Shown piece by piece: positions 23,801-64,000 of a stretch of DNA of 64,000 nucleotides (position 1 is the first letter of the stretch; every line of letters begins with the position of its first letter). The DNA comes from Antedon mediterranea (Eukaryota; Animalia; Echinodermata). The position numbers were made by a program, and so were the translations under genes. The notes below the pieces were generated by a model, which was not told the DNA's origin, did not search any database, and saw nothing but the letters and a program-made list of their open reading frames with translations. The stretch covers positions 1,059,788-1,123,787 of the forward strand of contig NC_092676.1 of assembly GCF_964355755.1 (NCBI RefSeq), given 5' to 3'.

Positions 23801-26800
23801 AGTGGCCGTGCTTGGGAGATCATTTTTTAATCGTACTAAACCCGAAATACATTCCATTAGTTAAACGAGAGAAGCCAAGGACTATTAAAGTAAAGAAATG
23901 GACAACGGAAGCAACGGAACGCCTACAAGATGCATTTGATGATACGGACTGGGAGATGTTTATTAATAACGCTAATGATCTGAATGAACTTACGGACACA
24001 GTGTCTGAATATATAAACTTTTGTAGTGATATGCTTATCCCAACTAAAAAGGTTAAAGTGTTTGCGAATAATAAACCGTGGATAACCAAAGATGTGAAAA
24101 TTATTATTAACCGGAAACAGAAAGCATTTGCTGAAGGTAATAAAGCGAAATTAAAAGAGGTCCAAAAAGAATTAAAATGTGCAATACGTAAAGAAAAATA
24201 CAAGTTTAAAAATAAAGTTGAAAAGAAGTTCACGGAAAATAACATGAAAGAGGTGTGGCAAGGAATGAGGTTAATGAGTGGACATATAAATAATAAACAA
24301 AAATCTGTATCGCTACCAAAAATTGACAAAGAATATGCAAATGAATTAAATATATTTTTCAATCGTTTTAACAAATATGATTTTTCAAAAGAAATTAAGG
24401 AACGGAAGTGTCAGCTTGAATCAAATATAAATGACATAAAAATTGATACAAATGAGGCTGAAGTATATAAGTATTTTAGAAATTTGAATGCTAAGAAAGC
24501 TCCCGGGCCCGATAAACTTAAACAAAATATTTTAAAATCATGTGCAATGCAGTTATCGTATATTTTCTCAATTATTTTTAATTTGTGTTTCACAACTAGT
24601 TCACTTCCAGAAACATGGAAACAATCATCTATTGTTCCTATTCCAAAAAGCCGTGTTATTAAGTATATGAATGATCTCAGGCCAGTTGCCTTAACATCAG
24701 TTGTATAGTAAAATATGTGAGAAAATTGTTTTAAAATGCTTAAAACCAATAGTCACTACGCATACTGATCCCATGCAATTTGCATACAGAAGTGCTCGAA
24801 GCACAGAAGATGCGATTGTCGTTAAACTTGAAAGGCTGTATCGTCATTTAGATAAAACAAAGGTTGGAAATTCAGCCCGTGTTATGTATTACGACTTCTC
24901 CTCTGCGTTTAACACCATTCAACCCCATTTACTAGTAGATAAGCTGTGTAAGATGGCCATTCCCCTTAATTTGATTCTTTTTATTCTGAATTTTCTAACA
25001 AACAGAAAGCAGTATGTGAAGCTTAGCCCAACAGTATGTTCTGATGTTAGTGTTTCCAATACAGGTGCGCCACAAGGCACTGTATTAGCCCCTTTTTTGT
25101 TTACCTTGTATACAAGTGATTATAGATCTAAATATGATTCTTGCCCAGTTGTACGATTTGCTGACGATACGGCGATGATTGGCTTGATTCAGAAGGACGA
25201 TTGCACTTCATATTTAAATGAGATTAATAATTTTGTAAAATATAGTAATGATAACTTTTTAGAATTGAATGTTGAAAAAACAAAGGAAATGATTACAGAT
25301 TTTAGAAAGAAAACGAATAAATGTGATCTAGTTGATATAATGGGTAGACAAATTCAGAGGGTGGAAACATATAAATATCTGGGGGTTGTATTTAACAATA
25401 AATTGACGTGGAGTAACCACTTGGATCTCGTTATGAAGAAAGTAAATACTAGAATGTACTGTTTAAGACAACTAAACAAGTTCAGTGTAAATAATAATAT
25501 TTTGATTACATTCTATCAGTCTATTATTGTTGGGGTTTGGAAATATTGTATTGCAGGGTGGGGTGGAAATGTTACAGAGGGAGATAAGGGTAGAATTGAT
25601 TGTGTGGTAAGAAGGGTTGAGAGGATGTCTGGTTTGTGTCAGCAGTCGGTGGATTAAGTTTATTGCGAGAACCTGGACAGGCTTTTTGGGATGGTGTTGA
25701 GGGATGAAAGTCATCCTGTGAATTCCGATTTAGGCAGTCTCAGGAGTGCTCGTAGTGGAAGATTGCGATCCGCGGCTGCTGACACAAACCGATATCTTTT
25801 CTCCTTTCTGCCCACAGGTATCAGGAGACATCAGCGACATTCATCCAGATGAGCACCATGAAATAATATGTAATAATATGTTCTTGTTGTGAGTTTTTAA
25901 TATTGGTATTGTTGTATTGTCATGTTATTTTATATATTGTAATTATGATGTATTTGAAGACGAGCAATGTAAATTTTCTCCTTGTGGGAACGAATAAAGA
26001 TTATACTTGATACTTGATACTTGATACTATTTAAGATGTTTATGGTACGCCAACTCTCGGTGTTATTATCATTTATCAAATCATAAGACCTGAGACCAAC
26101 AACAAAGCAAGATCTTCATATTGGGTGTATCACTACCATATTTGGGCACATCACACTTTTTTTTTCGAAATAGTTTGATAGTGTCACAGAGGTTATTACT
26201 AAATGCAGCCGGACAAAGTAGGTCACACCGTTAATTTGGTGATAAATTATGAAAGGTTTGGTTATCTTAATACAATAGTCTTTATGACAATTACTGTATG
26301 TAGGTATAAAGTACATTCAAGTATTTAATTAAAACTACATGTAATTAAAAACACAAAGAAGAAACAAATACAAACAAGTTTAACCACTCATTGGCCACTA
26401 CATCTCTGCCAATCTGTGTGACACCAGCTGGCATGAAAGTTTAAAATGATCATTAAATCCACAATAATATGTACTACTGTACCTTGTGATATTGATGGAC
26501 TAAGTATCATCTGTTTGTAGTAGGAATAGTAAAGACCAGCTTCTGTGCGAAATGATATCTCTCGTTCAACTTCCTGTAAGATACAAATAATCAATAAATA
26601 TGTTAGTATTTTTTATCCCTCGAATTAAGTAATTATGGAGTTACTGTATTACACTGTAGTGGATATAACAGTTTATTTTTTGTGGGGCGAAAAACATATT
26701 GCATATTATTTTTACGGTCAATCATATCAATCAATATCAGTCAATGTCAGCCAATATCAATCAATATCAATCAATATAGTTAATATCAATGAATTATAAC

Positions 26801-32221: not shown

Positions 32222-33134
32222 AATAATAAACCATTCAATTAATATCTAATTGTTCAGCCATTATATTCTGACTGAATCCTTTGTATGCCTCATAAAGTAT
32301 GCTCCTACTCTATGCCGGTGAAACTCCAGTATATAGAGAAATATTTCTGTCTCGTACACAGACGAGACAACGATTTACAACGTATCAACTTCAAATTATA
32401 ACTAAAAAATGTATAGGTATTTCATAATAAACCATTAAATTAATATCTAATTGTTCAGCCATTATATTCTGACTGAATCCTTTGTATGCCTCGTAAGGTA
32501 TGCTCTTACTCTATGCCGGTGAAACTCCGGTATGTAGAGAAATTTTTCTGTCTCGTACACAGACGAGACAACGATTTACAACGTATCAACTTCAAATTAT
32601 AACTAAACAAGAATATTTCTTACAAAAAACGCTGCTCGCTTATTGTTATTGCTAAGGTCCTATTACAAACAAAAACTTCAATGGACTGTTTTGATAATAA
32701 TTCAATGATTATCTGACAGCGAATTATATCATGGGACTCATAAATACCAGAATGCTTTGGGATTTGTCATTAGACTCTTTTCTCAGCCGTTTTTGGATTC
32801 AACAGGTGGTACCAATAAATTATAGTGGAGTTTCCATTTTAACAAAAATGTCAAAGTGTAGTACTATAAAGCTGCTTGATTTCATCTAATGAATGAGTCA
32901 TCTCGTGTGACGTAGCGGGCTAGAGCAGCAGCGTGAAAATGTATAGGTATTTCATAATAAACCATTCAATTAATATCTAATTGTTCAGCCATTATATTCT
33001 GACTGAATCCTTTGTATGCCTCGTAAGGTATGCTCCTACTCTATGCCGGTGAAACTCCGGTATGTAGAGAAATATTTCTGTCTCGTACACAGACGAGACA
33101 ACGATTTACAACGTATCAACTTCAAACTATAACT
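32222..33134. repeat. three copies of a ~180-200-bp block in the NLR1 3' flank
   Basis: AATAAAACCATT...ATGCCGGTGAAACTCC...TGTCTCGTACACAGACGAGACA...CAAATTATAACTA at about 32222, 32424 and 32954; a single partial copy at about 60790-60905. Confidence 0.9.
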
Positions 33135-33740
33135 AGAATTTATAGGTATTTCTGCCCTGTTTAACAACGAAACAAGGGCAACGTATTCCAACGTATCTAT
33201 AAGCAATAAAAACCAACTCGACTTCTGAATTTAGAATTCTATCATTCTCATCAATTTGTGCTGTCTTCACGACGGTACGAAAAGAAATGAAGGCGGTAAT
33301 ACATGGAAGTGGTCCCACGCTATAGCGGACTATCCCATTTATTAAGGAGGTGAACTACTGTAAGATTATTCTTTTCGTAATTGTTTTCGCACTTCGCTGA
33401 AAAGGGCTACTGTCGGGTTTATCCAGGTATGAAGGCACGTAATAGACTCTGAAATTATGCAATAAGTATTATAAAGACAGAAACTATTCACAGATTCTTT
33501 ATCTTTTTTGTCTAAAGTGACATAACAATGCAGTGTCAACAAATTTCAGAACATTCCAATGTTTACAAGTCAGAAATTCTTTTTTAACATACTGTACGTC
33601 TCTATTTTAAAATGTATACACTTTTATACCAAAAGCAGATCCAAGTGGATATCTGCACATGCTCATTCATCCCTTTGACCAAATGACAATTTTATTATTC
33701 AACTCATTCAAATATTTTCAAATGTTTAAAAGATGAAAGT

Positions 33741-33917
33741 TGTTTGGGTATGTTGCTTCGTCAATACCACAATAATAAAACTATACACAAAGATGTGCTA
33801 TAACTAACTTTAATAATAAGTCAAGTCAAACGAACAATATGGCGGTCTACGCACGTTGTTTCTCTCTCTTCCTTCAATTACATACGTCATACGTATGGGC
33901 GGCCTTAAGGGCTCACA
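33741..33917 (-). mobile_element. solo LTR (177 bp)
   Basis: TGT...ACA ends, 5-bp TSD AAAGT (33736-33740 and 33918-33922); the paralogous site has a single AAAGT (61521-61525). Confidence 0.75.
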
Positions 33918-36900
33918 AAAGTAATGTGTAAAAATGATTCCATATATATTGTACTATTGTCTATGTCCATGACATTATCAATTGACAAGTTATAATCACT
34001 CAATTTGAAAAGATCATAGCAATATATTACATTTATCAACTTGGAAATTGAAACACCTGAAAGATCATTCCCCCTCAGGTCAAGCATGCCAGGTTTTAAT
34101 ACCACTTCATTTAATTCACAATCCTTCAATAAGTCTCTAATAATAGTACCTGAGAGATTACAATTAACCAAGGTAAGCCAATTAAGTTGTGGAGAAAATT
34201 TCAACAAACAAGCTAATTTGGCTACTCCAATTGAAGTCAAGTCAGTTCCAGTTAAATCTAAATGTTTCAATGTCAACCAACCATGTTCATGGCAAGCATC
34301 AGCAAGACTTTCTAGATTATAAACTGACAAGCTATAATCACTCCATTTGAAATACGTATTAAATACGTTTACCAACTTTGAAAGTGAAACACCATCTATA
34401 TCTGATAGATCATTTCCCTTTAGCTTAAGTATGCCACTTTTTAGTATCACTTTGTTTAATTCACACTCCTTCAGTAAGTCTTTTATAATAGTACCCGAGA
34501 GATTACAATTATCCAAGACAAGTTTACATAATTTTGGTGAGAATTGTAATAACCAAGCTAATTTGGATCCTTCAATTGCAGCTAAATTAAGACCACTTAA
34601 ATTTAAACTGTTCCATGTCAAATTTTGACTATGTTCATGGCAGGCATCTGCGAGACTTTCTAGATTACCAACTGACAAGCTATAATCACTCCATTTGAAA
34701 AGATCACTCCATTTGAAAAGATCACTCCATTTGAAAAGATCATCGCAACATATTAGATTTACCAACTTGGAAAGTGAAACACCATCTATATCTGAAAGAT
34801 TATTATCCTTTAGATTAAGCATGCCAGGTTTTAATACCACTTTGTTTACTTCACATTGCTTCAATAAGTCCCTTATAATTGTACCTGAGAGATTACAATT
34901 AACCCAGTCAAGCCAATCAAGTTGTGGAGAGAATTTCAACAAACAAGCTAAGTTGGATACTCCAATTGAAGCCAAGTCAGTTCCAGTTAAATCTAAATGT
35001 TTCCATGTCAACATACAACCATGTTCATGGCAAGCATCTGCGAGACTTTCTAGATTACTAACTGACAAGCTATAATCACTCCATTTGAAAAGAAAATCAT
35101 ATATTAGATTTATCAACTTCGAAAGTGAAAGGCCATCTATATCTGAAAGATCATTTCCCTCTAGTCTAAGCATGCCAGTTTTTAATATCACTTTGTTTAC
35201 TTCACATTCCTTCAATAAGTCTCTTATAATAGTACCTGAGAGATTACAATTAACCAAGTCAAGTTTACGTAATTCTGGTGAGAATTGTAATAACCAAGCT
35301 AATTTAGATACGTTACTTGCAGCTAAGTGAAGACCACTTAAATTTAAAGCTTTCCATGTCAACTTATGACTATGTTGATGGCAGACATCTGCGAGACTTT
35401 CTAGATTACTAACTGACAAGCTATAATCACTCCATTTGAATGGGTTGTAATTGTACATTAGATTTACCAACTTGGAAAGTGAAACACCCTCTATATCTGA
35501 AAGATCAATTCCCTCTAGCCTAAGCATGTCAGGTTTTAATACCACTTTGTTTACTTCACATTCCTTCAATAAGTCTCTTATAATAGTACCTGAGAGATTG
35601 CAATTAACCAAGTCAAGTTTACGTAATTCTGGTGAGAATTTCAACAAACAAGCTAATTTGGATACACCAATTGAAGCCAAGTCAGTTCCAGTTAAATTTA
35701 ATTGTTTCCATATCAACACACAACCATGTTCATGGCAGGCATCTGCAAGACTTTCTAGATTATCAACTGACAACCTATAATCACTCCATTTGAAATACGT
35801 ATGTAATACGTTTACTAACTTGGAAAGTGAAATACCATCTATATCTAAAAGATCATTTCCCTTTAGCATAAGCATTTTAGGTTTTAATGTCACTTTGTTT
35901 ACTACACATTCCTTCAATAAGTCTCTTATAATATTACCTGAGAGATTACAATTAACCAAGTCAAGTTTACGTAATTCTGGTGAGAATTGTAATAACCAAG
36001 CTAATTTAGATACGTTAATTGCAGCTAAGTGAAGACCACTTAAATTTAAACGGTTCCATGTCAACTTATGACTATGTTCATGGCAGGCATCTGCGAGACT
36101 TTCTAGATTATCAACTGACAAGCTATAATCACTCCATTTGAAAGGATAATCCCAATTTATTAGATTTATCAACTTGGAAAGTGAAACACCGGAAAGATCA
36201 TTCCCCCTAAGGTCAAGCATGTTAGGTTTTAATGTCACTTTGTTTACATCACATTCCTTCAATAAGTTTCTTATAATAGTACCAGAGAGATTACAATTAA
36301 CCAATTCAAGATTATGTAATTTTGGTGAGAATTGTAATAACCAAGCTAATTTGGATACTTTTATTTCAGCTAGATGAAGACCACATAAATCTAATGTGTA
36401 CCATCTCAACTTATGACAATTTCCGTGGCAGGCATCTGCGAGACTTTCTAGATTATTAACTGACAACCTATAATCACTCCATTTGAAATACGTATGTAAT
36501 ACGTTTACTAACTTGGAAAGTGAAACACCATCTATATCTGAAAGATCATTTCCCTTTAGCATAAGCATATCAGGTTTTAATACCACTTTGTTTACTTCAC
36601 ATTCCTTCAATAAGTCTCTTATAATAGTACCAGAGAGCCCACAATCAACCAAGTCAAGTTTTTGTAATTCTAGAGAGAATTGTAATAAACAAGCTAATTT
36701 GGATCCTTTAATTGCCGCTAAATGAAGATCACCTAAATCTAAACGTTTCCATGTCAACATACTACCATGTTCATGGCAGGCATCTGCAAGACTTTCTAGA
36801 TTATAAACTGACAAGCTATAATCGCTCCACCTGAAATCAGGAATCATTACATTTACCAGCTTGGAAAGTGAAACACCATCTATGTCTGATAGATCATTTC

Positions 36901-39900
36901 CCTCTAGCCTAAGCCAACGCATACCAGGTTGTATAACCACTTTGTTTACTTCACATTCCTTCAACATGCATCTTATAATAGTACCAGTGAGATTACAATT
37001 TATCAAGTCAAACTCATTTATTTGTGGGGAAAATTTTAACAAACAGGCTAATTTGGATCCTTCCATTGACCTCAAGTCATGTCCACTTAAATCTAATTGT
37101 GTCCATGTCAACGTAGTGCCATGTTTATGACATGAATCTATCAGACTTTTTAGATTATCAACTGACAAGCTATGATCACTCCATTTGAAAGAACTGAAAT
37201 CCATTAGATTTACCAACTTGGAAAGTGAAACACCATCTATATCTGATAGATCGTCATTTCTATTTAGCCTAAGCATGCCAGGTTTTAATACCACATTGTT
37301 TACTTCACATTCCTCCAACAAGTCTCTTATAATAGTACATGAGAGACTACAATTAACCAATTTAAGTTCTTGTAATTCTGGTGAGAATTGAAATAACCAA
37401 GCTAATTTGGATCCTTTAATTGCCGCTAAATGAAGATCACCTAAATCTAAACGTTTCCATGTCAACGTACTACCATGTTGATGGCAGGCATCTGCAAGAC
37501 TTTCTAGATTATAAACTGACAAGCTATAATCGCTCCACCTGAAATCAGGAATCATTACATTTACCAGCTTGGAAAGTGAAACACCATCTATGTCTGATAG
37601 ATCATTTCCCTCTAGCCTAAGCCAACGCATACCAGGTTGTATAACCACTTTGTTTACTTCACATTCCTTCAACATGCATCTTATAATAGTACCAGTGAGA
37701 TTACAATTTATCAAGTCAAACTCATTTATTTGTGGGGAAAATTTTAACAAACAGGCTAATTTGGATCCTTCCATTGACCTCAAGTCATGTCCACTTAAAT
37801 CTAATTGTGTCCATGTCAACGTAGTGCCATGTTTATGACATGAATCTATCAGACTTTTTAGATTATCAACTGACAAGCTATGATCACTCCATTTGAAAGA
37901 ACTGAAATCCATTAGATTTACCAACTTGGAAAGTGAAACACCATCTATATCTGAAAGATCCGCATTTCTATGTAGCCTAAGCATGCCAGGTTTTAATACC
38001 ACATAGTTTACTTCACATTCCTCCAACAAGTCTCTTATAATAGTACCTGAGTGACTACAATTAACCAAGTCAAGTTCTTGTAATTCTGGTGAGAAATGGA
38101 ATAACCAAGCTAATTTGGATCCTTTAATTGCTGCTAAATGAAGATCACCTAAATCTAAACGTTTCCATGTCAACATACTACCATGTTCATGGCAGGCATC
38201 TGCAAGAATTTCTAGATTATAAACTGACAAGCTATAATCACTCCACCTGAAATCGGGAATCATTACATTTACGAACTTGGAAAGTGAAACACCATCTATG
38301 TCTGATAGATCATTTCCCTTTAGCCTAAGCCTACGCATACCAGGTTGTATAACCACTTTGTTTACTTCACATTCCTTCAACATGTCTCTTATAATAGTAC
38401 CGGAGAGATTACAATTAACCAAGTCAAGTTGACGTAATTTTGATGAGAATTGTAATAACCAAGCTAATTTGGATCCTTTAATTAGAGCTAAATTAAGACC
38501 ACATAAATCTAAACGTTTCCATTTCAACGTACTACCATGTTGATGGCAGGCATCTGCAAGACTTTCTAGATTATCAACTGACAAGCTATAATCACTCCAT
38601 TTGAAATACGTAATCATTACATTTACCAACTTGGAAAGTGAAACACCATCTATACCTGATAGATCATTTCCCTTTAGCTTAAGTATGCCACTTTTTAGTA
38701 TCACTTTGTTTAATTCACACTCCTCCAATAAGTCTCTTATAATAGTACCTGAAAGATTACAATTAACCAAGTCAAGTTTATGTAATTTTGGTGAGAATTG
38801 TAATAACCAAGCTAATTTGGATCCTTTAATTGCAGCTAAATAAAGATCACTTAAAGTTAAAAGTTTCCATGTCAACTTACGACCATGTTCATGGCAGGCA
38901 TCTGCGAGACTTTCTAGATTATTAACCGACAAGCCATATTTATCCCAAATGAAAGGTTCATAACTATAATCAGGGGAATAGTAACAAATTAGATTAACAC
39001 ACTTGGAAAGTGAAACACCATCTATATCTGAAAGATCATTTCCCTTTAGCTTAAACATGTCACGTTTTAATATCACTTTGTTTACTTCACATTCTTTCAA
39101 TAAGTCTCTTATAATAGTACCCGAGAGATTACAATTAACCAAGTCAAGTTGACGTAATTCTGGTGAGAATTGAATTAACCAAGCTAATTTGGATCCTTTA
39201 ATTGCAGCTAAATAAAGACCACATAAATCTAAATGTTCCCATGTCAACTTACAACCATGTTCATGGCAGGCATCTGCGAGACTTTCTAGATTATTAACCG
39301 ACAAGCTATAATGACTCCATTTGAAATACTTATTTAATACGTTTACTAACTTGGAAAGTGAAACACCATCAATATCTGAAAGATTATTTTCCTTTAGTCT
39401 AAGCATGTTAGGATTTAATACCACTTTGTTTACTTCACATTCTTCCAATAATTCTCTTATAATAGTACCAGAGATATGACAATCAACCATGCTAAGCCAA
39501 CATACATCTGGTGACAATTGTAATAACCAAGCTAATTTGGATCCTTTAATTGCAGCTAAATTTAGACCATATAAATCTAATCTGTTCCATCTCAACTTAT
39601 GACCATGTTCATGGCAAGCATCTGCGAGACTTTCTAGATTATCAACTGAAAAATTATAATCACTCCATTTGAAAGAATAATCGTAATCCACTAGAGGTAC
39701 CAATTTGGAAAGTGAAACACCATCTATTGCTGAAAGATCATTTCCCTCTAGTCTAAGCCTTGTGTATTTCAATAGAACCTTGCCTTTCTTATTGAATAAT
39801 TTATTAAATACTGCACCAGATAATTGACAATCACTCAATATTATGCAATGAGTTATGTTCATCAAAATTCTTAGTGAACCTACAGAAATATTACTTAGAT

Positions 39901-41979
39901 CATTATGACTGAGATCAATCTGTCTAAATTCTAAGGAGATATCATTTACTTGATCAATAACATGATTCAATACATCAATACTACCAGGTTTGAACTTCAG
40001 ATACAGTGGTTTGGAAGAAAATTTCAACAAATGAATCAAAAATTTACGATTTGTTGACTTCATAACATTAATCCGCTTTAAACTGTATTTAAATTGAAAA
40101 TTAACCATTACAGCTGAAAGGGTATCAAACTCTTCTAACATTGAATGCAATTTAAACAACCGGTCACTAACATCATAAACAGACGAACGTACGATATCAC
40201 AATCACTTAATTCATGTCTCGGATTGTGATAATCTATCAGATTGTCACTCATTAGTCCATGTATAATTATATAGATATGAACTAACATAGAACAAAATGT
40301 TTCTGTTGGTTTAGTGTCTTTTGTTTTTATGATCTTTAATAATGTATCTACAACACTCATTGGATCTTCCTTAACCCTTTCAAAACAAATGTTCATAAGC
40401 TGTACCAAATGTTTGTTTTCAAATTGTTGTTTTGCTTTTTGATTATCCAAATCATCATAATCAAGAACATTCTTAAACATCTCACAAACAGCATCAGTTG
40501 ATATGTTTGGTAACTCACGTATTACATGTATTTCATGTTCTGGTTTCACATAGCTGAAATATTTTGCTAGTGAATAGTAGTTTGCAGCTGTTTTCACCTT
40601 TAACCAATGTTTTATAATTTTACCAGCATCTTTACCTAGGAATTCCATAGTGAATATGATTGTCATGTGCAGATATGGATTTAACAGCATCTTTTTACAC
40701 TCTTCTTCATTCATCTCATTTGACAAACATGCATTAGCAAGGTAAAACCCTGCTAATGCCTCTGAAACTAGCTTGTGTGGTGGTGCAAACACTGCCTTTC
40801 TATCAGTTTTAATACTAGATGCTTTTTTGTAAACAAATCCAAGTTTCAGTGCTAATTCTACTGTATCCTTGTCAACCATACACTCAAACTCATTTTTGTA
40901 GATATAGAGATTGTTTTCAGTCAGGCCGTTAAACATACATTGACCTAGTGCAAGTATAGCCTTTTTATATGGAGCTCGAATTTCCCATATTTCTGCAATT
41001 TTATTTTCCTCAACCTTTGTATGTTGATTTAAAGTACAACAAATAAATTCTTTAAAAAAATCTGACATGGTAATTGAAAGTATTTCATCTGTCATTGGCA
41101 TAGAAGAAGTGGATTGGTCACACAAACTACAAATTATAAGTAATAACAATGGAGATGAACACAGTTCCTCTAAGTGTACTGTTTTGTTTTTAACCTGCCA
41201 TTGATATTTGTATGGTGGTTTAAGGTCTAATTTTGTAATCAACCTTTCTCCTAATTCAGGATTATTTTTAAAGTATTTCTCAATATAAAACTTCTTGCTT
41301 TCTTTACTAAATCCATTGACCTGAACATGCACATCACAGTTTTCAACAAATGTTGTAATGTTTAGAGGTCGAGATGTTATTAATGTGGTATTATTGTAAC
41401 CTGAACTAAACTTTAACAATTTCAGTCGATTTTTAGCACCTTTCTTCAACTCATCTAATCCATCTAATAGTAAAACTATTTCATCCCCATTTTCTATTAT
41501 GAACGCTTTAATTAATTCCATAGGATCTTCTTTGGATACACTTTTCAAATGATTAGCAAATCTTTCAAGGTCAATTTGATCAACAATACTATCTATGATG
41601 GTGTTTCCTAGCTCTATGTCTCTGATATTTATTAGAAACAATAGTTTGTCAGAAAATGTATCATCCTTACCCTTAGCCCAGTTATAAGCAATGTACCTGA
41701 GAAGGGTTGTCTTTCCCATCCCTCCTTTACCTGTAAGTAGAACTTTACATGACTTTTTAGATTTTATAATGCTCAATACTTCTTCCAAACATGTAGGTTT
41801 AGCATTTTGCTGCCTCGTTGCCTGGTCAACCTGTTTTTGTTTTGTAGATTGAAGTAATGTGAGATCTGTGAATACATCTGCAATATCTACTTTGTGTTCT
41901 TCATCAAAAACTGCTGTTCCCATCAGGTTCATATCTTTGTATAAGTCTCGTAGTTCTTCCTTCAAAAACATCTTGATAG
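33905..41979 (-). CDS. NLR1 terminal exon (8075 nt): NACHT plus 16 full and 1 partial four-LRR super-repeats
   Basis: Uninterrupted ORF (track 33905..42061); acceptor TTTTAACAG ending at 41980; repeat consensus LKGNDLSDIDGVSLSKLVN..FKWSDYSLSV.NLESLADACHEHG..LTW..LDL.GL.LAAIKGSKLAWLLQFSP.L..LDLVNCNLSGTIIRDLLKECEVNKV. Confidence 0.95.
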
Positions 41980-44346
41980 CTGTTAAAAAATTAATTGCAT
42001 TATATAAAAGATTCAATGAAAATTCAGTAAAAAAAGTAATCACATGTAAATTTAATAGCATATCTAATTTCCAATCATGTGACCGAGTTAGCGACTTTTT
42101 AAGGTGTGTTTATCCTGAATGTTTTATTTCTTGAACTATAGTTTTATAGAAACAACAGAATGTATCGATTATGTAACGGTAGAACATCTATAAGTGTACA
42201 ACAACAAAGATCAATACCATAAAATCATTATTTTGCACGCATCAAAAAAAATAAGAACATTTCAATGTGGTGGGTGTTTTACCATTAGTTTAAGGATGCC
42301 ATTGAATCAGGTTAAAAATTACCTTTATCTGCTGGTGATAGCTTACTTTCTTTAGAGTTAGAAGAGGAAAGCTTCATTACTGTTTCACCTAATGAAAAAA
42401 TCAACAAAATAACTACTTTGCGAAACCACCTAATTACTGAAAAAAAAAACCAACAATCATGTTGGTAAAAGTAGTTTGAACTCAATACAAAATAATTCAT
42501 GCAGAACTAATTCAAAACATTAATTAAACTTTGAATAATTAAATATGAAATCAATAAACAACTCTAAGGGAACATTACTATAATTTGTCTGACATAGTGC
42601 TTTGGAGAGAGTGTTCTTTTTCTTTTCATATTCATATTCATTCATATACACATTTATTCAGTTATTTATGGCAACAACTGTGGCTCGCACTAGAAGCAAT
42701 AGCTTGTCTCATGAGGGCCATATACAATACAAATATGCAAATACATAAAAAGAAAAAAAATGTATAAAACAATAAACAATAATATAAGTCAAAAACGAAA
42801 AAATATTGAGCATAACAAAAGTAACATTTTACATATTTTTTTAAGTAATTAAAGATACAGAAAGTTTTATTTTAACAGGGAGATCATTTCATAATTTAGG
42901 TCAAATTTTGGACAAATGGAAGTAAAACAACTTTTAATACAGTATCAGAATACTGTTTTATGGATTTCATAGGCTAATATACCTATACTGTATTATAGTA
43001 CTATACAGTACATTACCTTCCTGTAGAATGGAAACAGCCTGTCTGAGTTCTAGTCGTTCCAATATTTCAATAAATCCTTCCATTGTTTTTGTCGTGATCA
43101 CCTGTTCATGCTCTAGATCTCTTATCATAGCCCAGCTATCTTCATATTTCTTCAGAGGTGTGTTGTAGATTGCATCAATGTTTGATACATCACATGGCAT
43201 CAGACAGTAACCAAATTGGATTAATTTCTGCCTGTGGATTGTGAACCTAGTAATTGGGGCTTGTTTGTCAATGACAGGAAATGATGGTATCTTTTCTTTA
43301 AGCTTACGCTGGAGAGAAAATTCTTCAGTTAACTTGATGACATCATGAAGAAGAGTAAGATCTTGATAATTTAATTCATCAGCTGATTCCAGTACATTTA
43401 ACAGATCTATCATCTCAGTGATTCCTGATAGTTTATACTCTTTCACAAGATCTCTGAACAATACTTTCAACATACCAAGTTGGTTGCGAGCATCAAAATA
43501 CTTGGATATAAATATTTTCAGAAAGTTAAAATCTTTCTCTGGTATTCCTAAAAATAGTTAAAATATATGTAATAAAATATAAATATACAGTGTTAAGATG
43601 ATGCGTGTATTCTTTCTTATTGACTTATGATGTAATGGTAGCAATTTACAGTATTTAAACTTTATATTCTGGAAACTCGCTCCATAATTTCTAGCTTTTT
43701 TTCTTGTTTGTATCTTTACTGATAGCTTTAATTTTATATTAATTATATGTGTATAATAATATATATAATACATGTCATCACAAACTGTATACAGATCAAG
43801 ACAGATCTATAATAACTCTATTCCCACCAAAAATTAATCTTTTTGTCAACTAACATGTCCATTCTATAGTGACCATCAGTTCTATACAAATGGAAGATGA
43901 ATTCTAGAGTTGATATAATTATCTCATAGTTTTCTATTGGAACAGTGAAAGGTGTATTAGTTACCATGGTGATAAAAAACAATGAATTTAGAGTAGTTTC
44001 ACCGTGCCAAAAGGTTGGATGCACACTTTTATTTAGTTACATGATGCAACTTCAATCAAGAAAGGAATTTTTCCAATGTATCATGGGAATTCTACTGTGA
44101 AATTCTATTAGAGTACACTAGCTTTATGCAATGGTGAAAGAAAGATAACTGAACTAAATACTTGGCCATTTTATTATTACAGATACTTGGTAAAATATTT
44201 TTGTCAGCAGACTAATATTAAAACCTAATTCTACAATAACAATCACATGTAAATCTATCTCTAACTATTTGGTGAGATAGAAACCACAGTTTATTCAAAA
44301 GATGTGTGAATTACCATGGTTACTTACCTTTAGTGGATGCCGCCAT
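33905..44346 (-). CDS. NLR innate immune receptor 1: tandem DED-like domains - NACHT - very long LRR array, about 2896 aa
   Basis: Exons 44328-44346 (MAASTK), 43017-43547, 42323-42388 and 33905-41979, all joined by phase-1 GT/AG introns and in frame. NACHT Walker A GKGGMGKTT, Walker B LLLDGLDE, sensor LITSRP, CSSPLLL, winged-helix HKLVSEALAGFYL. Confidence 0.9.
42323..42388 (-). CDS. NLR1 linker exon
   Basis: GETVMKLSSSNSKESKLSPADK, 66 nt, phase 1-1. Confidence 0.7.
43017..43547 (-). CDS. NLR1 N-terminal exon with two DED-like (death-fold) domains
   Basis: GIPEKDFNFLKIFISKYF...MLKVLFRDLV...IDLLNVLESADELNYQDLTLLHDVIKLTEEFSLQRKL...HRQKLIQFGYCL...WAMIRDLEHEQVIT...FIEILERLELRQAVSIL: two helical repeats with the DED pattern L..LE....I....L..L.E.L; 531 nt, phase 1-1. 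Confidence 0.8.
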
Positions 44347-45493: not shown

Positions 45494-46818
45494 CGTTATG
45501 GCTAAAGATACGGTACCGGCTTAAAACTAAGGTACGGTAATTAGAGAGGGCGGTATGTAAGGAAGATGTTAATCAAATAGGTTATTGTAATGATGGTCTT
45601 CAGCAAGCCAGCTGTAATGCGCTTGTGATGAGGCTCTTGTATGGAATGCCTCCTCTGCCTTCAGTTCACATTTATCATGCAGTACACACCAATCTTCATG
45701 CAGTACACACCAATGGTCATGCAGTACACACCAATGGTCATGCAGTACACACCAATCGTCATGCAGTACACACCAATCGTCATGCAGTACACACCAAACA
45801 TCATGCAGTACACACCAATCGTCATGCAGTACACACCAATCGTCATGCAGTACACACCAATCGTCATGCAGTACACACCAATGGTCATGCAGTACACACC
45901 AATTGTCATGCAGTACACACCAATCGTCGTTCACATTTATCATGCAGTACACACCAATCGTCATGCAGTACACACCAATCGTCATGCAGTACACACCAAA
46001 CATCATGCAGTACACACCAATTGTCATGCAGTACACACCAATCGTCATGCAGTACACACCAATCGTCATGCAGTCAAATATTGCGTAATTTATACCGCCA
46101 CCTATCGACAAAATCGAATATCACGTGAGGTTTATTAGACGGCTGTAAAACTAAGACTATTTAAACTTCTTTTATAGAATTCAATAATTGCAATGGCCTC
46201 CTAGCCGCGCCTGTGTCTCGCATAATAAATTATTGTATATATAAAAAACAGAGCATTCACAGAGATGTGTAGCGGTTAAAATAAGTACAGTATGTCAAAC
46301 ATAAAAGAAATCTTAGAGTCGATGGCCTAGTTTTACAGCCGTCTAATAAACGTCACGTGATATTCAATTTTTATAAACCATTTTTTATAATTGAGGCGTG
46401 CCATACATTAACAATATTGACGATTGTGGCGGCCGAAATGAACAATACATATTTTGTCCTTTTTGGCGTTTCATGATTTTAGGCGTTCCATAACCGGCGG
46501 CCGAAATGACTGGCGGCCGATATGCATTGTGACCCGATGACATCTTTTTAGATTATTTAGAGTTTAGGTTTTTAATATTTAGGAACAAGTTTTAATATTT
46601 AGGAACGAGTTTTAGATTTAGGAATGAGTTTTATATTTCGAAACGAGTTTTATATTTCGAAACGAGTTTTATATTTCGAAACGATTTTTATATATTAGGA
46701 ACAAGTTTTATATTTATAGGAAAGAGTTTTCTATTTAGGTACGAATTTTAGGAATGCAATTTATAATTCCGTACCTTTAGTTTTTAGAAGTATGGATACG
46801 GTATCTTTAGCCACGGCG
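45494..46818. mobile_element. non-autonomous Mutator-like element upstream of the NLR1 ATG exon
   Basis: TIRs CGTTATGGCTAAAGATAC / GTATCTTTAGCCACGGCG; exact 9-bp TSD TAGTTTTTA at 45485-45493 and 46819-46827. Confidence 0.75.
45665..46073. repeat. 21-bp minisatellite, about 18 copies
   Basis: Unit TCATGCAGTACACACCAATCG inside the Mutator-like element. Confidence 0.95.
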
Positions 46819-56100: not shown

Positions 56101-56672
56101 TTTACAGTAAATTTTAATCTGTTATAGCTCGTAAGAATAAAATGGGATAATCACGATTAAAACGTTTTCAGGAAGCTATTGTATTGTAGATACAAAATCA
56201 TGTGTAAATTGTGCCAATCGAATGTTGTGACGTCATCATATGGCCAGTTAAATAAAAAAAGTCGTATTTTCATCTTTTGCGTTATATTTCATTACATTTA
56301 AAAAAGCGCGCATCAATATTTCACGTATTCAAATTTCTTCTACACGTTAATAGGTTATTGCTGAGATAATTTCATTCTGAAATTTCTACTTTTGCATTTC
56401 ATTTTGAAACCGTCAAGATGTTAAAAATTACAATAAAATACGGGTCCCGTAATTTCACCTATTTTACACTGTTTGTGATATGTATACAGATTGTACTGTG
56501 TATACTATATGACACAAAATAACAGAATTAAGAAATAACAACATATCATATTCTTCAGTTCAGGTCATAATGCCTTAATATTTTTTTGTGTGCAATATTC
56601 TAACGTCCGACGTGTACGTGGCGTTTGTCGAGCGGATAACTAACTCGTCAAAGTGACGAGTTTCATGTCTAG
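47140..56672 (+). mobile_element. nested cluster of non-autonomous Helentron-type (HINE/DINE-1-like) elements
   Basis: Eight 5' ends with a GTTATCCGC...GGATAA hairpin (47145, 47219, 48371, 48447, 53177, 53244, 53518, 53577) and five 3' ends GCGGATAAC + AACTCGTC-AAAGT-GACGAGTT hairpin + CTAG (ending 49930, 51440, 52965, 55148, 56672). Related ~1.5-kb bodies, T-rich insertion sites, no obvious TSD. Confidence 0.8.
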
Positions 56673-57654
56673 TTTAGTTATTATAACCTTCACATAACAA
56701 AATGTATGTATTTACCCAAAAAATAAAGTGAATTCTGTCTCTATCTGATCCAAGGATGATACGCCCATCTTTGATTTGAAGAAAAGGAGGAAGCTAGCTG
56801 AGCAACCTCCTGGTGGCGTTTGAGCACGTGAGTCAATTAGATCATTATGGATGAATATTCATTATCGCCCTCTACTCATGGGTGTTTCTAATGCTAAGAC
56901 CATGAGAGAGAGAAGACAGCGCGTGCAAAAGGCAAGGAGGACCCTACGAAATTGTAGTATGCACAAAATACAACTAAAAATCGTACAAACTCAATAACAC
57001 CGTTCACATTTACTTACATAATCTACTAAACATATTTTGATTTTAGTCTTTCCATAGGTAGGCCTACTATATCAGTCTCCCTCTCGCATCGTGCGGAACG
57101 TTCCCGCAGCGGCATTTGTCAAAATGAATTTTAAAGTTTTTAATAAAACCCGCATTTTAATGAAACACATGCGTGACCACATAATTATTTGTCACACATT
57201 TAACAGAAGTATATGCGTGATCATTTTGTATCACTGTTTGAGAAGAAAATGCATTCAAATTGGTATATTTTTACCTTACAAAAAAGAATTGAATGAAAAA
57301 AACGTACTGAATTACAAACAAAAGAGACTGTCCCCCTTACTTATACGTTCGCATTAAAAACGCAAAATACGATCGTTTTGCTGATTCCTATAGCGCGCTA
57401 TGGGAGTGTCATTTCCGGTCCGGAATAAGATATTTATTATTTGTCATCCTTCAAAGCAGGATTGTATTCCACTGTATATATCCGTATACCGGCCCTGTTC
57501 CACTGTAGGTCTACACATGGAGCTATAAATTACTAATTTTATAGCTCCATGGTCTTCATATCCGTATGGTTTACGATGAAATCGGTCGCGATTGAAATCG
57601 GTCGTGATAAAATCAACCTCCGGTATTTTGTATGGCGCGCCGCTAGAGCTACTT

Positions 57655-59907: not shown

Positions 59908-61535
59908 TATAGCAAAAACAAATGAAATCACATTGAATCTTACCATTTCGACAAAGTATAGGGATAAAAACACCAGCAACAGCTCCCTCTGTTGTTTCCA
60001 ATATGTTTCATAGTGACAGCACAATGTGTAATTTACTCTTCATACCAATCATAGTACTGTACATCTACTTGAATGTAGCATTGTAATATTAAAATACACT
60101 CAGCTAACTTTCCGATGTGACCTTTAACTGGAATTAACATATAAATTTACCATATTTATTCAAATAAATTCCCCACTTTAAATAAACTCCCCTATAAGAC
60201 ATTATTTAGAATAAATGTGTTGTATTTGTTCATAATTAGGGGGTATTTGTTTGATTATACTATACATGTTAACATATTATACCAAAAAAAAATAAAAGCC
60301 TCCTTCAAACGCACAGTATTTTATTTCTTAAACTATTTGGTCAGAGTAAACAGTATAATCAAGTAGATCTCTGTACTGTTGTCGTTATTTCTGATCAAAA
60401 TAATATTGCAAAAATATAGGCCTACAAAAGACAACAATTGAAAAAGCATTCTTTCTCTTTTTTAAAACTTTTATTCATCTACTTATCTTATCTACAGTAG
60501 TAACGGGTATAAAAAAAGAAAAATACATTCAACTAAAACCAACTACAGGCATTTATGTTCACAGATTAATTAACCAATAAGCTATTATCAAATTTACAAA
60601 ACGCTTCATCACAGAGCACTTGAACAATAAAAAAAACTAATTTCATCTAAAATACTATACTAGTTAAATTAATACTTAAACCTTAAATAGTATACTAGTG
60701 ATCGCAATAGCAACAAATGAAAATAATGCAGTATTGTTTATTGTAGGCATATATAGCAATGCATATTATTTTTCTGAGATATTTTTTAACCTCATAAGGT
60801 ATGCTCCTACTCTATGCCGGTGAAACTCTGGTATGTACAGAAATATTTCTGTCTCGTACACAGACGAGACAACGATTTACAACGTATCAACTTCAAATTA
60901 CAACTATAACTTATAGGTATTTCTGCCCTGTTTAACAAAAAAACAAGAGCAACATATTCCAACGTATCCATTAGCAATAAAGATCAACTCGACTTCGGAA
61001 TTTAGAATTCTCCTATCGTTCTCATAAACATCGTGCTGTCTTCACCATGGTACAAAAAGAAATGATAGTGGCAATACGTACGAGTGGTTCCACGCTATAG
61101 CGGACTGTCCCATTTATTAAGAACGTGAACTACTGTAAAATTCTTCTTTTCGTAATTGTTTTCGCACTTCGGGTTTATTCAGGTAAGCAGGCACGTAATA
61201 AAAATTATGCAACCAGTATTATAAAGACAGAGACTATTCACAGGTTCTTGATCTTTTTTGTCTAAAGTGACATAACAATGCTGTGTCATCAAATTTCAGA
61301 AGATTTCAATTTTTTTCAATGAAACAAATAAAAGTCAGTACAGTAATTCTTTGTTTTAACATACTGTACGTCTCTTTTTAAATGTATATACTTTGACCAA
61401 AAGCAGATCCAAGTGGATATCTGCACATGCTCATTCATACCTTTAACATAATGACAATTTTACTATTCAACTCATATAAAAATATTTTCAAATGTTTACT
61501 ATTAATGGTTTTGAAAGATGAAAGTAATGCATTTT
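59908..61535 (-). repeat. segmental paralogue of the NLR1 3' flank (about 31565-33930)
   Basis: Collinear shared blocks, e.g. TAGCAAAAACAAATG..CACATTGAATCTTACCATTT, CCAACTACAGGCATTTATGTTCACAGATTAATTAACC and AAAAGCAGATCCAAGTGGATATCTGCACATGCTCATTCAT. Confidence 0.9.
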
Positions 61536-61750
61536 TAAATGATTTCCATATATACTGTACTACAGTCTATGTCCATGACATTATCAATTGACAAGTTATA
61601 ATCACTCCATTTCAAAAGATCATTGCAATATATTTGATTTATCATCTTGGAAAGTGAAACACCTGATAGATCATTCTCGAGTCAGGTCAAGCATGTCAGG
61701 TTTTAATACCACTTTGTTTACTTCACATTCCTCCAATATCACTCCATTTG
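61535..61750 (-). pseudogene. orphaned terminal LRR unit of NLR2
   Basis: Reads ILEECEVNKVVLKPDMLDL...FEMSDYNLSIDNVMDIDCSTVYME with frameshifts; homologous to the NLR1 C-terminus (LSIDNVMDIDNSTIYMES). Confidence 0.8.
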
Positions 61751-61758
61751 AACATTTT

Positions 61759-62340
61759 ACAATCATATTAAGAGCTACAATCATATTAAGAGCTACAATC
61801 ATATTAAGAGCTACAATCATATTAAGAGCTACAATCATATTCAGAGCTACAATCATATTCAGAGCTACAATATTCAGAGCTACTATCATATTCAGAACTA
61901 CAATCATATTCAGAGCTACAATCATATTCAGAGCTACAATCATATTCAGAGCTACAATCATATTAAGATCTACAATCATATTAAGAGCTACAATCATATC
62001 ACTTCTTGAACAGCCTGCATAACCTGTTTTAATTGAAATTGTTTATGGCATGCCAATCTATGTTTTATATATATATATATATATTTTATCTGTATTTTAT
62101 TGTTAACCGTTTTTGATGTTGTATTGTTTTATGTTTCAAACCTGTTAGTGGCGGTATTTATCGCTGTTGGTTTTGATTGAATAAAATAAAATAAAAAATA
62201 AAAAGAGCTAGAATCATATTAAGAGCTAGAATCATATTCAGAGCTAGAATCATATTCAGAGCTAGAATCATATTCAGAGCTAGAATCATATTCAGAGTTA
62301 GAATCATATTCAGAGTTAAAATCATATTCAAAGCTATAAT
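61759..62340. repeat. 18-bp tandem repeat array interrupted by a ~200-bp insertion
   Basis: Unit AATCATATT[C/A]AGAGCTA[C/G] at 61759-61998 and 62203-62340; the insert 61999-62202 ends in (AATAA)n. Confidence 0.9.
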
Positions 62341-64000
62341 CACTCAAATCAGAACTGGAACAACTTTGATTAACCCATTTCGAATGTGAAACACCATCTA
62401 TATCTGAAAGATTATTATCCTTTAGATTAAGCATGCCAGGTTTTAATGTCACTTTGTTTACTTCACATTCCTTCAATAAGTCTCTTATAATAGTACCTGA
62501 GAGATTACAATTAACCAAGTCAAGGTTACATAATTCTGGTGAGAATTGTAATAACCAAGCTAATTTGGATACCTTAATTGCAGCTAAATGAAGACCAGTT
62601 AAATCTAACCTCTTCAATGGTAACTTATGATTATGTTCATGGCAGGCATCTGCCAGACTTTCTAGATTACCAACTGACAAGCTATAATTACTCCATTTGA
62701 ATAACTCATACTTGCAATCCATTAGATTTACCAACTTGGAAAGTGAAACACCATCTATATCTGAAAGATTATTATCCTTTAGATTAAGCATGCCAGGTTT
62801 TAATGTCACTTTGTTTACTTCACATTCCTTCAATAAGTCTCTTATAATAGTACCTGAGAGATTACAATTAACCAAGTCAAGGTTACATAATTCTGGTGAG
62901 AATTGTAATAACCAAGCTAATTTGGATACCTTAATTGCAGCTAAATGAAGACCTGTTAAATCTAACCTCTTCAATGGTAACTTATGATTATGTTCATGGC
63001 AGGCATCTGCCAGACTTTCTAGATTACCAACTGAAAAGCTATAATTACTCCATTTGAATAACCCATACTTGCAATCCATTAGATTTACCAACTTGGAAAG
63101 TGAAACACCATCTATATCTGAAAGATTATTATCCTTTAGATTAAGCATGCCAGGTTTTAATGTCACTTTGTTTACTTCACATTCCTTCAATAAGTCTCTT
63201 ATAATAGTACCCGAGAGATTACAATTAACCAAGTCAAGGTTACATAATTCTGGTGAGAATTGTAATAACCAAGCTAATTTGGATACCTTAATTGCAGCTA
63301 AATGAAGACCAGTTAAATCTAACCTCTTCAATGGTAACTTATGATTATGTTCATGGCAGGCATCTGCCAGACTTTCTAGATTACCAACTGAAAAGCTATA
63401 ATTACTCCATTTGAATAACCCATACTTGCAATTCATTAGATTTACCAACTTGGAAAGTGAAACACCATCTATATCTGAAAGATTATTATCCTTTAGATTA
63501 AGCATGCCAGGTTTTAATGTCACTTCGTTTACTTCACATTCCTTCAATAAGTCTCTTATAATAGTACCTGAGAGATTACAATTAACCAAGTCAAGGTTAA
63601 ATAATTCTGGTGAGAATTGTAATAACCAAGCTAATTTGGATCCTTTAATTGCAGCTAAATGAAGACCAGTTAGATCTAACCTCTTCAATGGTAACTTATG
63701 ATTATGTTCATGGCAGGCATCTGCCAGACTTTCTAGATTACCAACTGAAAAGCTATAATTACTCCATTTGAATAACCCATACTTGCAATCCATTAGATTT
63801 ACCAACTTGGAAAGTGAAACACCATCTATATCTGAAAGATTATTATCCTTTAGATTAAGCATGCCAGGTTTTAATGTCACTTTGTTTACTTCACATTCCT
63901 TCAATAAGTCTCTTATAATAGTACCTGAGAGATTACAATTAACCAAGTCAAGGTTACATAATTCTGGTGAGAATTGTAATAACCAAGCTAATTTGGATAC
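62219..64000 (-). CDS. NLR receptor 2 (tandem paralogue), 3' end of LRR array; 5' part lies beyond the right edge
   Basis: Open frame from the window edge to TAA at 62219; near-identical 119-aa (357-bp) units homologous to the NLR1 super-repeat, then an (SEYDSS)n tail. Confidence 0.85.
   Translation of the reverse strand, partial: VSKLAWLLQFSPELCNLDLVNCNLSGTIIRDLLKECEVNKVTLKPGMLNLKDNNLSDIDGVSLSKLVNLMDCKYGLFKWSNYSFSVGNLESLADACHEHNHKLPLKRLDLTGLHLAAIKGSKLAWLLQFSPELFNLDLVNCNLSGTIIRDLLKECEVNEVTLKPGMLNLKDNNLSDIDGVSLSKLVNLMNCKYGLFKWSNYSFSVGNLESLADACHEHNHKLPLKRLDLTGLHLAAIKVSKLAWLLQFSPELCNLDLVNCNLSGTIIRDLLKECEVNKVTLKPGMLNLKDNNLSDIDGVSLSKLVNLMDCKYGLFKWSNYSFSVGNLESLADACHEHNHKLPLKRLDLTGLHLAAIKVSKLAWLLQFSPELCNLDLVNCNLSGTIIRDLLKECEVNKVTLKPGMLNLKDNNLSDIDGVSLSKLVNLMDCKYELFKWSNYSLSVGNLESLADACHEHNHKLPLKRLDLTGLHLAAIKVSKLAWLLQFSPELCNLDLVNCNLSGTIIRDLLKECEVNKVTLKPGMLNLKDNNLSDIDGVSHSKWVNQSCSSSDLSDYSFEYDFNSEYDSNSEYDSSSEYDSSSEYDSSSEYDSSS

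Follow-up and report, generated by a model that had tools for sequence, protein, structure and literature searches.

A giant tandem-DED/NACHT/LRR gene of the feather star Antedon mediterranea with recombining repeat units and a variable predicted binding face

The window, a 64-kb stretch of Antedon mediterranea DNA, carries on its reverse strand a giant gene (gene A) and, at its far end, part of a second gene built from the same type of LRR unit (paralogue B; Table 1). Gene A contains an open reading frame of 2734 codons without a stop (33905-42109), and its earlier description as a single-exon gene does not stand, as four exons are predicted and only the NACHT and LRR regions lie together on the last of them. 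The joint 41979-42323, which corresponds to predicted intron 3 and has CT..AC ends, is spliced in run X5, whose status as RNA is a guess, none of the runs listed being recorded as RNA; among the 15 of 18 joints shown, neither splicing at the exon 1 joint nor the exon 2-3 joint was seen. A peptide similar to exon 3 is present in the Antedon protein P0019.

Table 1. Features of gene A and paralogue B in the window
Feature	Position	Strand	Basis
Predicted exon 1	44328..44346	-	Start codon, 6 codons plus 1 base; GT donor and phase-1 frame fit
Exon 2, tandem death effector domain (DED-DED)	43017..43547	-	Pfam, predicted fold, Foldseek
Exon 3, 66-bp linker	42323..42388	-	AG/GT ends; joint 41979-42323
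Exon 4, 8075 bp: NACHT, helical domains, entire LRR array	33905..41979	-	Open frame; acceptor backed by X5 joint
NACHT NTPase core	41264..41743	-	Pfam PF05729, E 6.5e-19, 68.8 bits versus cut-off 26.7
16 full four-LRR units A01-A16, 336-390 bp each	34058..39721	-	TRF, unit splitting, predicted fold
Longest unique loop, unit A03 (YYSPDYSYEP)	38940..38990	-	Unit comparison
Recent two-unit (708-bp) block duplication, A05-A06 / A07-A08	36878..38293	-	A06 and A08 identical; 474-bp identical tract
In-frame 18-bp slippage triplication in A15 loop (LFKWSD x3)	34685..34742	-	TRF and unit comparison
Partial 17th unit and C-terminal tail	33908..34057	-	Unit splitting
Paralogue B, LRR array of gene A's unit type, 4 full units seen	62219..64000	-	ORFs, TRF, unit comparison
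Out-of-frame remnant: paralogue B terminal unit and 3' flank homologous to those of gene A (84-88%)	60790..61739	-	Sequence comparison

The identification of gene A as an NLR is borne out by its NACHT with Walker A and B, its C-terminal LRR solenoid and its N-terminal death-fold effector, features by which metazoan NLRs are recognized. Both the Walker A (GKGGMGKT) and the Walker B (LLLDGLDE) motifs are intact as read from the translation, and the NACHT gives weak sequence matches to NLRP3 and NLRC4 chains in the PDB. Exon 2 is matched by Pfam PF01335 at an E value of 9e-6, under the curated cut-off, while its predicted structure has a pLDDT of 94.7 and finds its best Foldseek matches among the tandem DEDs of caspase-8/cFLIP, at a TM of about 0.7.

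The array begins near 39760, ends with the stop at 33905 and, over about 1950 aa, consists of 16 full units of 112-130 aa followed by a partial 17th, in agreement with an earlier count of at least 16 four-LRR units; TRF reports it with a period of 354 and a score of 5768. The tandem, in-frame organization given in the earlier note was confirmed, with a frame that is open throughout and unit lengths that are all multiples of 3; the range of about 345-375 bp widens to 336-390 bp. One loop in each unit shows in-frame slippage. Over 120 pairs, the units share 74-100% (mean 83%) of their DNA and 59-100% (mean 71%) of their protein sequence. A model of four units (pLDDT 91.6) is a solenoid with four LRRs per unit that matches the RI/NLRP-type LRR fold (Z 15.9, rmsd 13.4 over 411 residues). 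The array escapes the LRR models of Pfam at their cut-off; matches to DUF5983, pentapeptide and similar Pfam models were rejected as sums of weak repeated matches. A contig of organism B crosses the unique loop of A03, differing at 7 of 140 bases; the loop is bridged by a contig of run X6 and has no cover in runs X1 and X5, a gap that is no proof of absence. Least probable of all the alternatives considered is an assembly artefact, either in the length of the array or in the 708-bp duplication. The identity of A06 and A08, with their 474-bp shared tract, and the fact that none of the listed contigs spans the array would fit it, but distinct sequences make up 14 of the 16 units, A05 differs from A07 by 5%, no stop interrupts the frame and database proteins carry up to 14 such units.

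Paralogue B is cut by the window end, and its array terminates in an 18-bp minisatellite and a stop. Its units are 98-99% identical to each other (97.5% in amino acids), and this unit is nearly identical to the last unit of P0019. The near-identity of these units and the disrupted end of paralogue B indicate that such arrays expand without diversity too. In a 128-unit tree built with FastTree, the units cluster mostly by gene, with the P0004 array as an exception, and the B units nest among those of gene A. Gene conversion between A and B was not demonstrated, the divergences of NACHT and units being similar in size.

The units of gene A are mosaics that have recombined mostly below unit size. 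A PHI-type test on the units is significant (p=2e-4) and stays so when restricted to third positions (p=6e-4), in 12/12 comparisons among four unit segments a segment rejects the tree of another (AU p<0.02), and nearest neighbours change along the length of the units, so that the array displays the exchange between repeats that is typical of concerted evolution. The earlier proposal of cassette swapping was thus right as to exchange between units and wrong as to its scale, since breakpoints lie inside the units, which rules out strictly whole-cassette swapping, and duplication of a whole block was observed in one instance. Because the array is intron-free, its reordering would proceed by DNA-level exchange only. 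Intragenic recombination is a feature of plant NBS-LRR resistance genes. Somatic rearrangement of units into cell-specific, VLR-like receptors is very improbable: intron-free, 83%-identical units would suit mitotic recombination, and fungal HIC NLRs are suspected of being somatically unstable according to the available part of one source (PMC12222747), but gene A is complete in the assembly, not an incomplete germline gene as in VLR-like systems, no free LRR cassettes were found in the 64-kb window that could act as donors beyond paralogue B and its remnant, and all mosaics are compatible with a germline history.

Variation within the units is unevenly distributed. The four short windows that had been described as varying in almost every unit indeed occur in 12, 13, 12 and 14 distinct versions among the 16 units. 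The helical scaffold, described earlier as highly conserved, is conserved per site but not invariant, with 4, 6, 11 and 12 versions in four helix stretches. At 18 concave positions, a set that follows the LxxLxLxx motif but was fixed only after the variability table had been seen, entropy averages 1.39 bits, compared with 0.53 at the remaining 94 (p=3e-6) and 0.72 at 40 control positions that are polar but not concave (p=6e-4). The same concave enrichment was found in 8/8 Anneissia arrays with at least 5 distinct units (p from 2e-9 to 0.024), 11 of the 19 homologues being excluded for having too few units. The placement of the variable sites at the predicted concave face therefore holds for gene A and is matched in every testable Anneissia array.

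Codon models, run with our own code and with branches scaled instead of individually fitted, favour M2a over M1a on one tree (LRT 30.8; 6/6 sites with posterior >0.95 concave) as well as on segment trees (LRT 14.9, p=6e-4; 3/4 sites concave). Segment trees yield a concave omega of 1.47 (p=0.024), which was reached in 2/103 simulations with neutral concave positions and recombination, and the tree-free ratio of concave dN to overall dS is 1.66 (bootstrap 95% 1.09-2.47). When the concave class is given its own synonymous rate, omega is 0.76, 0.90 or 1.29 (p=0.46) in three analyses, none of them significantly above 1. Positive selection on concave positions, with a dN/dS of about 1.5, is thus moderately supported only and loses significance with a free synonymous rate. 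It is possible, albeit rather unlikely, that gene A is an ordinary NLR in which neutral repeat turnover grows and homogenizes the array and concave residues vary from absent constraint. The concave omega, not different from 1 with a free synonymous rate, the similar pN (0.30) and pS (0.29) at concave codons, the whole-array omega of 0.66 and the near-identical and broken paralogue B would all be expected under such turnover, which, however, fits poorly with polar non-concave positions that are far less variable than concave ones, with an observed omega that null simulations rarely reach and with length changes that all keep the frame in the 16 units; moreover, pS is low (0.15) at non-concave codons adjoining the strands, and therefore a local rise in mutation rate is not indicated. 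Gene A is an intact tandem-DED/NACHT/LRR gene with units that have recombined, and we consider it probable that it works as an intracellular immune sensor and that diversifying selection acts on its predicted binding face.

All close named relatives of gene A are crinoid proteins, namely the uncharacterized NACHT-LRR models P0019, P0009, P0015 and P0076 (XP_071956244.1) of Antedon mediterranea and LOC117103017, LOC117120766, LOC117115710 and LOC117125276 of Anneissia japonica; no protein identical to gene A is among the matches listed. These models, annotated by machine only as "uncharacterized", share with gene A the NACHT clade (P0019 84% over the NACHT region), the DEDs in front, the 116-132-aa four-LRR unit in 1-14 copies and the concave bias of variation, whereas P0076 combines a NACHT with a long array of a related 57-aa two-LRR unit; with 16, gene A has the most four-LRR units seen. 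The P0019 model, which stops after a single unit nearly identical to that of paralogue B, may be truncated. No description of this crinoid family was found in the literature searched, and it is apparently undescribed, but to speak of an undescribed system would be an overstatement, as its mode of evolution is already known, repeat shuffling under selection being on record for fungal NLRs.

Likening gene A to HET-type NLRs of fungi was apt. In the available text of two studies, fungal NLRs with high internal conservation (Podospora het-e, het-d, het-r and the nwd family; ANK and TPR NLRs) are reported to combine tandem sensor repeats, within-gene exchange, concerted evolution and hypervariable binding-face positions (PMC4986451; PMC12222747), all of them shared with gene A, which is likely their animal counterpart. 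Fungal NLRs lack LRR repeats according to the part available of PMC4986451, and gene A differs from them in its repeat type, which is neither WD40, ANK nor TPR, in its higher-order four-LRR block with a length-variable loop and in its tandem DED effector. The fungal HIC level of at least 85% repeat identity is not reached by gene A (mean 71% aa, 83% nt); paralogue B (97.5% aa) and Anneissia P0005, P0007 and P0013 (86-89%) do reach it. The evolutionary signature shared with fungal het NLRs, the long protein-binding RI-like solenoid and the death-fold effector would likewise suit an allorecognition or guard-type sensor directed at proteins of conspecifics or of the host, like Podospora het-e/het-d, and not at microbial molecules, but echinoderm NLR expansions are usually interpreted as pathogen sensors and such a self/non-self role seems improbable. 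The placement of NACHT and LRRs on a single exon is a known trait of sponge clade C NLRs and of similar Lottia, Capitella and Nematostella NLRs (Yuen et al. 2014, PMC3879445), which share the death-fold/NACHT/LRR order with gene A; the text available from that study does not mention a giant internally repeated array or within-gene selection. In zebrafish NLR-B30.2 genes, LRRs have duplicated more than 20 times with gene conversion, but they are 'not particularly variable' and selection acts on B30.2, whereas in gene A the LRR strands vary (Howe et al. 2016, PMC4852459). Brown algal ROCO LRR genes undergo LRR shuffling and diversifying selection, as far as the accessible part of the source goes, with one LRR per exon and alternative splicing, in contrast to the intron-free array of gene A (PMC11378527).

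From NLR biology, the NACHT would keep the protein closed until ligand binding somewhere on the solenoid of about 66 LRRs opens it; the oligomers would then expose the tandem DED to a partner resembling caspase-8 or FADD. In the germline, gene conversion together with unequal crossing-over among intron-free units could keep the scaffold alike and recombine strand and loop variants, and these recombined variants may create new binding patches faster than point mutation alone. Bolder still, and doubtful, would be a feather-star family of giant, intron-free NLRs that keeps recombining LRR blocks of 57-60 aa and 116-132 aa along tapes of 60-90 LRRs, with new binding surfaces as the outcome. Its alleles would be highly polymorphic between individuals, perhaps between cells, and the family would be the animal counterpart to the fungal het receptors, with a death signal of the caspase-8 type as output.

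Gene annotation easily truncates such arrays, as may be the case for P0019, and they may be under-counted. The natural four-LRR scaffold with its four variable windows is of interest as a framework for binding proteins. Diversity of animal NLRs is usually described as an expansion in gene number, whereas here it is apparently made inside one exon by exchange of LRR blocks, with change focused on the predicted binding face as in fungal self/non-self receptors. Should allelic variation be borne out, crinoids would offer a deuterostome model of receptor diversification without lymphocytes that can be read from one PCR-amplifiable exon and that allows a direct comparison of germline with somatic variation.

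The final ~1950 residues of gene A, the NLR gene on the minus strand, form a tandem array of 16 full units (A01-A16, 5' to 3'), each 336-390 bp long, followed by a partial 17th; Tandem Repeats Finder recovered it with a period of 354 and a score of 5768. Compared in all 120 pairs, the units share 74-100% of their DNA positions (mean 83%) and 59-100% of their residues (mean 71%). Every difference in unit length is a multiple of three, and the window contains no N bases. That the array represents an assembly error is barely credible. The four short variable windows described in the earlier note are present, each with 12-14 distinct forms among the 16 units. A structure model of four units is an LRR solenoid (pLDDT 91.6) with four strand-helix repeats per unit, in which confidence is low only along the long loop of unit 3. 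The closest folds are those of ribonuclease inhibitor and of the NLRP LRRs (Z 15.9), and the large rmsd (13.4 over 411 residues) suggests that the curvature of the modelled solenoid differs from theirs.

The gene model joins four exons with GT-AG ends, all in phase 1, into a stop-free product of 2896 aa. The predicted fold of exon 2 (pLDDT 94.7) resembles the tandem DED of caspase-8 and cFLIP (TM about 0.7), its Pfam DED match being weak (E 9e-6), and exon 4 encodes a NACHT domain (Pfam E 6.5e-19) with intact Walker A and Walker B motifs. Given this tandem DED fold, the NACHT domain and a solenoid of four repeats per unit, gene A is a tDED-NACHT-LRR gene with an array of ~66 LRRs. Intron 3 corresponds exactly to a joint at 41979-42323 with CT..AC ends in sequencing run X5, a second sample whose RNA status is only guessed; this joint is absent from the three DNA-type runs, and the other two introns are absent among the 15 of 18 joints displayed.

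Features of the window (positions within the whole stretch)
Feature	Position	Strand	Remarks
Gene A, exon 1	44346-44328	-	predicted
Gene A, exon 2	43547-43017	-	predicted; tandem DED
Gene A, exon 3	42388-42323	-	predicted
Gene A, exon 4	41979-33905	-	NACHT and LRR array
Gene A, open frame	42109-33905	-	2734 codons without stop
201-bp unit, ~3 copies	32223-33152		directly downstream of gene A; partly common to paralogue B flank
Minisatellite, 21 bp	45675-46074		1.3 kb upstream of predicted start of gene A; yields spurious ORFs
Minisatellite, 41 bp, 33 copies	1329-2708
Minisatellite, 49 bp	4712-5087
Overlapping ORF pair (570 and 320 aa)	22996-25657	+	assigned by eye; read like non-LTR retrotransposon endonuclease and reverse transcriptase with one frameshift
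Tandem duplications, 1-3 kb	47270-56680		non-coding, diverged (74-96% identity); no ORF >132 aa
Paralogue B array	62219 to beyond window end		second array of the same LRR unit
Two 18-bp minisatellite tracts	61758-62342		loop position of paralogue B; in-frame stops in some copies

The homologues suggest that the window belongs to a feather star near Antedon. When just the ~8000 candidates with most shared words were scored for each query, all proteins returned by the LRR-unit queries (10/10 and 9/9) came from Anneissia japonica or Antedon mediterranea, and all 58 returned by the NACHT region at E<=1e-30 were crinoid, the best being P0019 (84% identical). This A. mediterranea protein carries two tandem-DED pairs N-terminal of NACHT and ends after one LRR unit nearly identical to those of paralogue B, its gene model being possibly truncated. 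Searching 1.84 billion representatives with a profile yielded 142 matches; nine of ten strong matches looked up were crinoid, and ten weak ones included two from frogs, one from a fish and one from Legionella, with different repeat periods (28, 48-57, 173 aa and multiples). Of the 204 collected proteins, 37 contain one or more full units (1-16 copies each), as do 14 of the 58 NACHT-query proteins. A further database protein, P0077, ends in an endonuclease peptide resembling the putative retrotransposon of the window, probably through annotation read-through.

One half of the gene A unit matches a two-LRR unit of 57-60 aa that forms arrays in other crinoid NLRs, and the other half, including the variable loop, is a derivative that resembles it weakly. 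The longest such array is that of P0076 (XP_071956244.1, A. mediterranea), a 3951-aa NACHT protein in which ~2700 residues, built of the 57-aa form, show recurrent higher-order patterns and vary close to the strands; the NACHT-LRR proteins P0098 and P0113 (2295 and 2845 aa) have internally conserved 28-aa and 55-aa LRR arrays. A FastTree phylogeny of 128 units unites the window's units with those of P0019 in a single group adjoining other Antedon units. Homologues P0006 (9/9), P0003 (14/16), P0013, P0016 and P0010 group by gene, and P0004 units do not; this mostly by-gene grouping means that arrays were amplified repeatedly, in one gene after another.

Recombination was assessed on 15 of the 16 units (A08, identical to A06, was left out) and 116 of 133 columns. 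A PHI-type permutation test gave p=2e-4 (6e-4 with third positions alone), and, with the unit cut into four segments, each segment rejected the tree of every other one (AU p<0.02, 12/12). Along the unit, the nearest neighbour of A04 changes from A16/A12 at the start to A06 at the end, and that of A12 from A10 to A14, A13 and A09; there is also one two-unit (708 bp) block duplication, of which a 474-bp identical tract remains. Exchange among units is thus real and mostly below cassette size, so that the cassette swapping proposed in the earlier note holds as exchange between units, the pieces being mostly finer than whole cassettes.

The same note had placed the variation at ligand-facing positions, and this is borne out. 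At the concave positions, that is, the predicted binding-face strand sites (xxLxLxx rule on four strands; 20 sites, or 18 when the loop is excluded), a set defined after the variability table had been seen, entropy is 1.39 bits, compared with 0.53 at all other positions and 0.72 at 40 polar ones taken as controls. Concave positions are likewise more variable in all eight Anneissia arrays with at least five distinct units (p 2e-9 to 0.024), 11 of 19 homologues having too few. In codon models written for this analysis, M2a was favoured over M1a on one tree (LRT 30.8; all six sites above 0.95 concave) and likewise when segment trees were used (LRT 14.9, p=6e-4; three of four sites concave). Concave omega on segment trees was 1.47 (p=0.024), a value reached in 2 of 103 simulations that combined eight segment histories with neutrality at concave sites, and the tree-free ratio of concave dN to overall dS was 1.66 (95% 1.09-2.47). 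When the concave class was given its own synonymous rate, its omega was 0.76, 0.90 or 1.29, never significantly above 1, and pN equals pS within concave codons (0.30, 0.29). Neutral repeat turnover with relaxed concave sites is the less likely reading, though it keeps appreciable weight. Neighbouring codons have a low pS (0.15), and the high concave pS may therefore stem from multiple hits in fast codons. The evidence for positive selection on concave positions is moderate.

Parts of the stretch were found as short contigs in nine runs (two organisms, three studies). Pieces of the NACHT-to-array region show zero differences in runs X1 and X5 and are ~98% alike in the second organism (organism B), and close paralogues are indicated by the many pieces that match at 90-95%. 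A contig of organism B spans the long loop of unit 3 with 7 differences in 140 bases, and this variant is therefore common to both organisms. Paralogue B has four full units, 98-99% identical and nearly matching the last unit of P0019, and its array closes at the loop position with an 18-bp minisatellite and a stop, 3' of which lie an out-of-frame terminal-unit remnant and a homologous 3' flank; the minisatellite tracts appear to have cut off its C-terminal unit. Since unit 15 of gene A carries an in-frame 18-bp triplication in the same loop, the loop looks, from these two cases, like a slippage hotspot.

In the accessible text of published sources, several features of gene A have parallels. 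NACHT and LRRs share one exon, as in gene A, in sponge clade C, Lottia, Capitella and Nematostella NLRs (PMC3879445), DED-NACHT fusions occur in echinoderms and cephalochordates (PMC8913654, PMC13012124), LRR exons are shuffled in algal ROCO genes (PMC11378527), and zebrafish NLRs have >20 LRR copies described there as not particularly variable (PMC4852459). In fungal NLRs, repeats are shuffled and the binding face is under selection (PMC4986451, PMC12222747); gene A falls below the 85% identity applied to them, which paralogue B and three of the Anneissia arrays reach. The accessible part of a 2026 review attributes echinoderm diversity to germline gene-family expansion and does not mention crinoids (PMC13428168). 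No description of crinoid NLR arrays was found in the openly accessible literature searched; these genes could appear in the supplementary NLR tables of PMC8913654 and of PMC13012124. Of the suggestion that this is an undescribed system, the part concerning the family apparently stands, and its mode of evolution is already known from other kingdoms.

Gene A is real and well-formed, and its family appears not to have been described before. A role of the gene product in allorecognition is improbable, and somatic assembly of the array is highly improbable; the product is most likely an intracellular sensor. Ligand binding to the concave face would free NACHT, and the oligomers would seed a DED filament together with a partner resembling caspase-8 or FADD, a mechanism drawn from NLR and DED biology. 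Germline unequal crossing-over, conversion and loop slippage would reshape the intron-free array, in which selection would favour new strand variants.
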